From: a virus
Lineage: Duplodnaviria > Heunggongvirae > Uroviricota > Caudoviricetes
Virus record (IMG/VR): IMGVR_UViG_2778261574_000003
Strand: one strand, 5' to 3'
DNA length: 4,715 nt
Part shown: positions 3,681 through 3,892 of the stretch, piece by piece
Layout of the letters: the number at the start of each line of letters is the position of its first letter
Numbering within the stretch: position 1 is the first letter of the stretch
Made by a program: the position numbers and the translations under genes
The notes under the pieces: model-generated
What the model was told of the DNA's origin: nothing
Databases searched by the model: none
Seen by the model: only the letters and a program-made list of their open reading frames with translations

Positions 3681-3803
3681 TTAATAACCCCCCTCTTTCA
3701 GCCAGATAACCTGTGTTCTCGCCATACCTTCCAGCGCGCATTCTTTTGCATATGCAGCATCGACTTGCTTGGCATGCCCTTTACCGGCAATCTTCTGTAT
3801 GCG
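3681..3803 (-). pseudogene. ybcO: 3' remnant of a ybcO-like (DUF1364) gene, last ~40 codons, no start codon
   Basis: Open frame bounded upstream by two TAG codons. Translation RIQKIAGKGHAKQVDAAYAKECALEGMARTQVIWLKEGGY then TAA at 3683..3681. The segment VDAAYAKECALEGMARTQVIWLKEG matches the recalled C-terminus of DLP12 YbcO. It ends 3 nt before the rusA GTG, as in DLP12. Confidence 0.6.
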
Positions 3804-3892
3804 CTAAACCTAGATAGAATCCACTCTGTGCACATTGAAGCCCGCTCTATGCTTCCTTTCAGGTATTGAAGGGATTGAGATGGGCTAAGCAT
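3698..3892 (-). pseudogene. ninF: Chimeric ORF: ninF-like N-terminus (~21 codons) running out of frame into the ybcO remnant
   Basis: ATG at 3892 overlaps the end of the NinX-like gene. First residues [21 protein letters not shown] resemble the recalled lambda NinF N-terminus ([21 protein letters not shown]...). After about codon 21 the ORF diverges and reads the ybcO remnant in the wrong frame until TGA at 3700..3698. Confidence 0.5.

Follow-up and report, generated by a model that had tools for sequence, protein, structure and literature searches.

Gene order around the joint

The stretch of DNA analyzed here, referred to as the window, is 4,715 nt long and takes in the region from the late-early to the lysis genes of a lambda-like E. 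coli phage or prophage. Its minus-strand genes follow the order dam-ninE-ninX-[scar]-rusA-ylcG-quuD, after which come a porin moron on the opposite strand and then the lysis genes. The scar is bordered upstream by ninX, the last functional gene on that side, and downstream by rusA, the first functional gene on the other. From high to low coordinates, the features are the following:

..4402, minus strand: end of an N6-adenine methyltransferase gene
4405..4229, minus strand: ninE
4226..3885, minus strand: ninX (DUF2591), intact (Pfam PF10765, E = 1.1e-16; PGAP annotation)
3892..3681, minus strand: ninF–ybcO scar region
3677..3315, minus strand: rusA (Holliday-junction resolvase), intact (PGAP annotation of an identical locus)
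3318..3178, minus strand: ylcG
3092..2709, minus strand: quuD, Q antiterminator
1438..2520, plus strand: OmpC/NmpC-like porin gene, 360 aa, intact
849..634, minus strand: essD
634..137, minus strand: rrrD
Running off the low-coordinate end of the window, minus strand: start of Rz

Late transcripts must cross the porin gene, since it sits in antisense orientation between the gene for the Q antiterminator and the lysis genes. It is intact in the window, whereas its counterpart in the DLP12 prophage of K-12 carries an IS5 insertion. At the other end of the window, three IMG/VR loci (L052, L068 and L070) cleanly lack the methyltransferase gene that lies between ninB and ninE. The missing piece corresponds to positions 40023-40536 of ev099 (L103), upstream of the window's ninE, and its boundaries have an imperfect common 12-nt sequence ending in ...GCATGA, which looks like a module presence/absence polymorphism.

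A locus identical to window 3600..3960 is found in strain Res13-Lact-EB12-05, in a defective prophage beside ybhC. This neighborhood is the lambda attachment region, whereas DLP12 lies at argU. In the 2391-3536 stretch of the chromosomal locus that equals the window over 3600-3960 (L001), an IS1A copy has a small early-left gene on one side and a replication gene O, truncated at its 5' end, on the other. The L001 prophage is defective because it lacks an immunity region, but free phages still carry the same scar.

A three-part joint

Local BLAST against representative relatives divides the scar into three segments, not two. These are the 5' end of ninF, an orphan segment termed B and the 3' end of ybcO, and a chimeric reading frame extends over all of them:

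3892..3830, minus strand: segment A, ninF 5' remnant; ATG and codons 1-21 of a P22/ST64T-type ninF, with a start that overlaps the end of ninX
About 3829..3765 (50-65 nt), minus strand: orphan segment B, with no match to either gene
3764..3681, minus strand: segment C, ybcO (DUF1364) 3' remnant; 27 codons and TAA
3892..3698, minus strand: chimeric 64-codon ORF, running from ninF codons 1-21 through segment B into the ybcO remnant, which it reads out of frame

The upstream flank belongs to a P22/ST64T-type ninE-ninX-ninF block. DNA homology to this block of ST64T, at 95% identity, ends at window position 3830, where ninF codon 21 finishes. From 3830 to about 3817, the in-register similarity to ninF fades (6 of 13 positions matching, p = 0.08), and thereafter it is gone. 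The ATG of the ORF (3892..3890) overlaps the end of ninX at 3885, the same place and the same kind of overlapping start that NinF has after ninX in lambda, P22 and ST64T. Residues 1-22 of the 64-aa product match the NinF of ST64T, a P22-like phage, at 16 of 22 positions (E = 2e-9 in a single BLASTP comparison), and nothing aligns beyond them. Both the protein and the DNA comparison bear out an earlier interpretation made from the letters alone (the sequence-only reading), which described a NinF N-terminus that loses homology after about 21 codons. Compared with the NinF proteins of these phages, which have about 57 aa, the window ORF is 64 aa long and unrelated after codon 21, with a tail made of orphan DNA and out-of-frame ybcO.

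The downstream flank is a DLP12-type ybcO-rusA-ylcG-quuD block. DNA identity with intact ybcO alleles begins exactly at 3764 (GTCGATGCTG...) and amounts to 99.4% for strain KSC207 and 97.6% for a K-12-like strain. When compared with DLP12 of K-12 (ybcN-ninE-ybcO-rusA-ylcG-quuD-nmpC-essD-rrrD-rzpD), the window agrees in gene order and at 97-99% identity from ybcO codon 68 to the right, whereas upstream it has dam-ninE-ninX-ninF' instead of ybcN-ninE-ybcO. As at a mosaic joint, the two flanks are highly similar to different phage lineages and the similarity is lost abruptly inside genes. The sequence-only reading had placed a junction between a P22-type and a DLP12-type block inside both genes. 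The scar and the types of its flanks stand, but the two genes do not abut, with B lying between them. Similarly, a single breakpoint had been expected near 3805..3830, and there are two, at about 3830 (fuzzy to about 3817) and at 3765/3764.

The ybcO remnant is read in a second minus-strand frame, which is open for 40 codons (RIQKIAGKGHAKQVDAAYAKECALEGMARTQVIWLKEGGY, then a stop) with its TAA at 3683..3681 and two in-frame TAG codons upstream. All 40 codons had been taken to translate to the YbcO C-terminus; the open stretch and the YbcO end are both there, but only the last 27 codons are derived from ybcO. Within these, 25 of 25 residues are identical to residues 68-92 of an intact 96-aa YbcO. 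YbcO is the DUF1364 protein of DLP12 and phage 82 (PF07102 'putative nuclease YbcO'; PDB 3G27), and the remnant occupies the same site upstream of rusA. The translation does align to DUF1364, over positions 62-91 of 92 in the PF07102 profile (E = 0.0037), with a score of 17.7 bits that falls below the gathering cut-off of 29.9 because the remnant is short. In comparison with YbcO, it lacks the first 67 of 96 residues (the N-terminal Cys/His-rich region), the start codon, the ribosome-binding site and a promoter, and it is not a complete ORF. The absence of a start and the two upstream TAG codons had been pointed out before, and both are present in the sequence as described. PGAP annotates the same 84 nt of the identical locus as 'DUF1364 domain-containing protein, incomplete, missing N-terminus'.

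A run of G at 3688..3693 on the minus strand gives the remnant two forms. Six G are present in the window and five in 58 of 59 aligned IMG/VR copies, as well as in the ybcO genes of DLP12 and KSC207. The common five-G form ends in ...KEGVIKA and its TGA overlaps the GTG of rusA (GTGA), which is the position of ybcO immediately upstream of rusA with a stop/start overlap (GCGTGA/GTG). The extra G in the window alters the last residues to ...KEGGY, places the stop 4 bases upstream and abolishes the TGA/GTG overlap. This change has no obvious consequence because the remnant has no start. The rusA gene keeps its own GAGGGGG(G) Shine-Dalgarno-like run.

Segment B has relatives in another context. 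In two Stx1 phages, AU6Stx1 and SH2026Stx1, and in numerous STEC prophages, an unannotated stretch directly behind ninE is 87-88% identical to window 3858..3758, and B differs from its Stx1-phage counterpart at 13 of 101 nt (12-13% divergence). In that context (AU6Stx1, STEC 2013C-3250), a lambda-type ninE and a decayed lambda-type ninF start lie upstream, and the transition from ninF to B has the same codon-21 stump as the window. Downstream, B continues into AT-rich DNA and then a reverse-oriented moron, not ybcO. The two contexts part at 3765/3764, two bases before a CGATG pentamer that is common to B, ybcO and the window.

Three candidate sources of B were tried and rejected. MAFFT had suggested that B is a diverged or frameshifted continuation of ninF, but local alignments against the ninF 3' parts of lambda and ST64T gave p = 0.50 and 0.87 versus shuffles, and a conceptual protein with the frameshift corrected has no Pfam hit. 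The orf89 interval found between ninF and ybcO in the STEC383 prophage is unrelated to B (alignment p = 0.81). Finally, between the two B lineages a synonymous excess is found in none of the six frames, contrary to what the remnant of a coding gene would show.

Distribution and formation of the joint

Of 5,426 complete E. coli genomes, 584 (about 11%) carry the whole junction, 572 of them at 99% identity or more. It is also found in 27 phage genome records, including ev099, ev207, ev243, 1H12, Lambda_2E9, PhiR57_1 and mEp332, and in 80 of the 83 IMG/VR contigs with the right half of B. Its occurrence in hundreds of independent assemblies shows that it is neither chance nor artifact, and its near-identity across genomes, phages and IMG/VR contigs indicates a single event that is tolerated and inherited. 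An alignment of 59 IMG/VR copies over ninE..ylcG shows no polymorphism from 3831 to 3740, and the flanks vary about every 10-12 nt. Most simply, this invariance would fit a single recent origin of the joint, and the variation in the flanks would have come in through recombination with other alleles of ninF and ybcO.

The carriers include functional phages. The joint is present in ev099, a complete and intact 47-kb phage genome, and in mEp332, which is quantified by plaque assay and handled as a plaque-forming phage of lambda immunity (PMC3442831). The scar is therefore compatible with a functional phage, and both the plaques of mEp332 and the 27 phage records speak for the dispensability of NinF and YbcO.

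The region is accordingly read, with a probability of roughly 0.85, as a mosaic joint without function that lies in the dispensable nin region of a lambda-like phage or prophage, is inherited and tolerated by its carriers and is old enough to have spread widely. In kind, such a joint is already known and is an ordinary mosaic scar. The nin regions of lambdoid phages hold non-essential genes between P and Q that are exchanged or lost at short or no homology, giving novel intragenic joints that leave growth unaffected, and the laboratory deletion nin5 of lambda is a comparable joint in the same region. Module junctions of this mosaic kind, and remnants of genes, in the nin regions of lambdoid phages have reportedly been described by Juhala and colleagues in 2000 for HK97 and HK022 and by Clark and colleagues in 2001 for HK620. 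The window joint differs from those already known in having three parts, one of them an orphan spacer, and in its presence in about 11% of complete E. coli genomes. Literature searches found nothing on the ninF–ybcO joint.

Because B and the same ninF stump also occur in Stx1 phages with a different continuation, at least two recombination events are needed, which would also make a history of at least two events the simplest one. The ninF gene would have been cut after about codon 21 in one event and joined to the unrelated segment B, a ninF'-B state that would survive in the Stx1 phages adjoining the reverse-oriented moron. In another event, earlier or later, B would have been joined to ybcO codon 68 at 3765/3764, near the common CGATG pentamer, with removal of ybcO codons 1-67. 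Both events may have been short-homology or illegitimate recombination. Both proteins are destroyed, NinF by the loss of all that follows its first Cys and YbcO by the loss of the first 67 of 96 residues. Translation of the ORF, if any, would merely carry ribosomes from the ninX/ninF overlap to 19-20 nt before the GTG of rusA. Expression of rusA, ylcG and Q downstream, along with phage viability, would be unaffected, and this would account for the wide spread of the scar.

A deletion in a single step, in which one illegitimate event removed everything from ninF codon 21 to ybcO codon 68 and B is captured filler DNA, is very unlikely. An arrangement like the ancestor it needs does exist, since the comparison with a prophage having both genes intact, which the sequence-only reading had called for, was run and found the order ninX-ninF-orf89-DUF1364-rusA in STEC383, with the two genes near each other. 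Both flanks of the window are also as they had been described. However, B together with the same ninF junction follows a lambda-type ninE/ninF start in the Stx1 and STEC elements and runs there into unrelated AT-rich DNA, and the 12-13% divergence of B between contexts makes it older than a fresh filler insertion.

Slightly less probable again is that the 64-codon ORF is a real gene, whether a variant of NinF or a newly born, useful chimeric small protein, for example one that serves the translational coupling of rusA. Such a gene would be in keeping with the start that overlaps the ninX stop as in P22-type phages, with the TGA that lies 19-20 nt before the rusA GTG, with the frame being open in 59 of 59 aligned IMG/VR copies and with the label 'protein ninF' in RefSeq records NC_049953 (NC_049953.1 41057-41251) and NC_049949 and in NCBI protein clusters. 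The same ORF is labeled 'hypothetical protein' in mEp332, and PGAP leaves it unannotated and marks the ybcO piece as a pseudogene instead. Against a gene, hmmscan assigns the 64-aa product to no Pfam-A family, NinF included, even at E <= 10. Only the first Cys of NinF is retained (ERASMCTEW), and the Cys-rich core (C-x2-C ... C-x2-CC), seen as CANCG...CEHCC / CSDCC in the NinF translations of lambda and ST64T, is lost.

The pattern of substitution likewise differs from that of a gene. Polymorphism in the ORF among the 59 copies is 5 synonymous to 12 non-synonymous and is spread evenly over codon positions (5/6/6), whereas the same alignment gives 4/4/14 for ninX and 18/8/31 for rusA, both with a third-position excess, and 32 synonymous to 20 non-synonymous changes for rusA, as is usual for a protein-coding gene. 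Of the 12 codons that changed between the two B lineages, 9 alter the amino acid when read in the ORF frame. Because the copies are very similar, the figures for the 59 copies only weakly suggest that no coding selection acts on the ORF within the lineage. Databases hold versions of the ORF that are frameshifted, truncated or interrupted by an IS, and derivatives without its 5' two-thirds or without its 3' third persist in genomes. The 42 codons after the junction stay open in about 8% of shuffles, so that the length of the ORF is unremarkable.

Full-length homologs of the ORF in other phages, which the sequence-only reading had named as evidence against a scar, are formally present in the 27 phage records. 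They are copies of one junction by descent, and since B is invariant in the 59 aligned copies, they do not amount to independent conservation. The earlier judgment that neither product is likely to be functional is upheld, with the ORF having no Pfam hit or coding signal and the ybcO remnant having no start. The chimeric ORF is a by-product of the joint that is open by chance, although it may be translated and bring ribosomes near rusA.

Two further variants of the ORF were encountered. In one IMG/VR copy, an in-frame tandem duplication of 18 nt in the ninF stump at window 3878 (TCAATCCCT repeated) extends the ORF to 70 aa. In a protein from an ENA metagenome contig (P0016), the head of the ORF continues as DVYKRQ..., which is the translation of read-through into the Nextera mosaic-end adaptor, and this protein was discarded as an assembly artifact.

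Recurrent breakpoints and the decay of the prophage family

One bond inside the scar is a recurrent deletion endpoint. A search with the ORF protein gave chimeric ORFs with either its head or its tail but not both, and their loci were inspected together with IMG/VR contigs. The bond after window 3782 (3781..3783, minus strand, GCCGGTA/AAGGGC; ...GATTGCCGGTA/AAGGGCATGCC..., with the slash marking the bond) is joined in them to at least seven partners, which include the following:

ea22: complete genome AP043606, at the same ybhC site
Two other early-left sites: L029 and L082
A cro-like gene: L011
Lambda P codon 47: L009
P codon 33: L013
Inside ylcG at window 3228, a rightward partner: L015

Scanning IMG/VR with the left half of B turned up no additional partners on the right-hand side. 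These junctions are rare derivatives, with a non-standard left partner in only about 5 of the 589 complete genomes that carry B.

When about 90 loci are mapped against intact ev099, they resolve into about 23 distinct deletion-type junctions, a count in which shared ancestry is not formally controlled. About 16 of the 23 cross at a microhomology ending in TA (GGTA, GTTA, GTA, CTA or TA), again with kinship uncontrolled, and the TA usually follows a GC-rich run (GCCGGTA/, GCAGGTA/, GGCGGTTA/ and GCGCCTA/). The microhomology is real because the TA is still present in each left partner's native sequence. Several sites are reused at single-nucleotide resolution, namely P codon 33 with four partners and ylcG 3228 and ev099 positions 31051, 34601 and 40985 with two each. 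The breakpoint positions noted are 3781-3783, 3228/3229 and 3706/3707 in the window and 38619, 31051, 34601, 40985, 41167 and 41720 in ev099.

The end of an IS21-family (IS100-like) element, TGTCACGAACGGTGCAATAG..., has been inserted independently twice within about 30 nt of B in other strains, in L016 at about 3613 (equal to window 3780) and in P0008 at about window 3752. Adjacent deletion mediated by an IS was considered for the alternative junctions and rejected, since an IS is absent at every one of them and the IS21-family end is found only as these two separate insertions. DNA structure prediction gave none at the 3782 site. A paper on the Rpn nuclease and another on gyrase Topo-Seq offer no sequence preference that would explain crossovers at TA.

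The least probable account is that B, together with the DNA around it, is not inert filler but a functional DNA or RNA element, for example a target site for recombination or a nuclease or a regulatory RNA. In its favor are the strict invariance of B between polymorphic flanks in the 59 copies, the reuse of the 3782 bond and the two nearby IS21-family insertions. Against it are the 13 of 101 differences from the Stx1-phage counterpart, the absence of any Rfam family matched by B, of any promoter or terminator motif in 3700-3900 and of a stable DNA fold (z = 0.12), the expectation that B stays invariant if the flanks vary through recombination and B has no diverged partner in most hosts, and the existence of other breakpoint hubs outside B, which means that a special property would not be unique to it. 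Inverted repeats near B are limited to two weak, distant pairs.

The non-functional mosaic joint thus remains the preferred reading of the scar itself, and the breakpoints raise a separate matter. It is conceivable, though doubtful, that the scar sits on one of a few recurrent hub breakpoints via which this prophage family decays through a site-preferring break-and-rejoin activity. Read tentatively in this manner, the hub pattern would argue against random illegitimate recombination. It would point to a nuclease or recombinase with a TA crossover, or to recurrent fork breakage repaired by microhomology, as candidates for the activity.

Taken alone, the joint matters little, and it documents that a lambda-like phage can dispense with NinF and YbcO. 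It also reveals an inconsistency in public annotation, in which the chimeric ORF has been spread as "protein ninF" and the ybcO piece is rightly flagged as a pseudogene. As a clean and datable marker of one recombinant lineage, the scar is useful for tracing the prophage family. The recurrent TA breakpoints are the only item that merits a further look, and if a specific mechanism lies behind their recurrence, it would bear on how cryptic prophages are whittled down.
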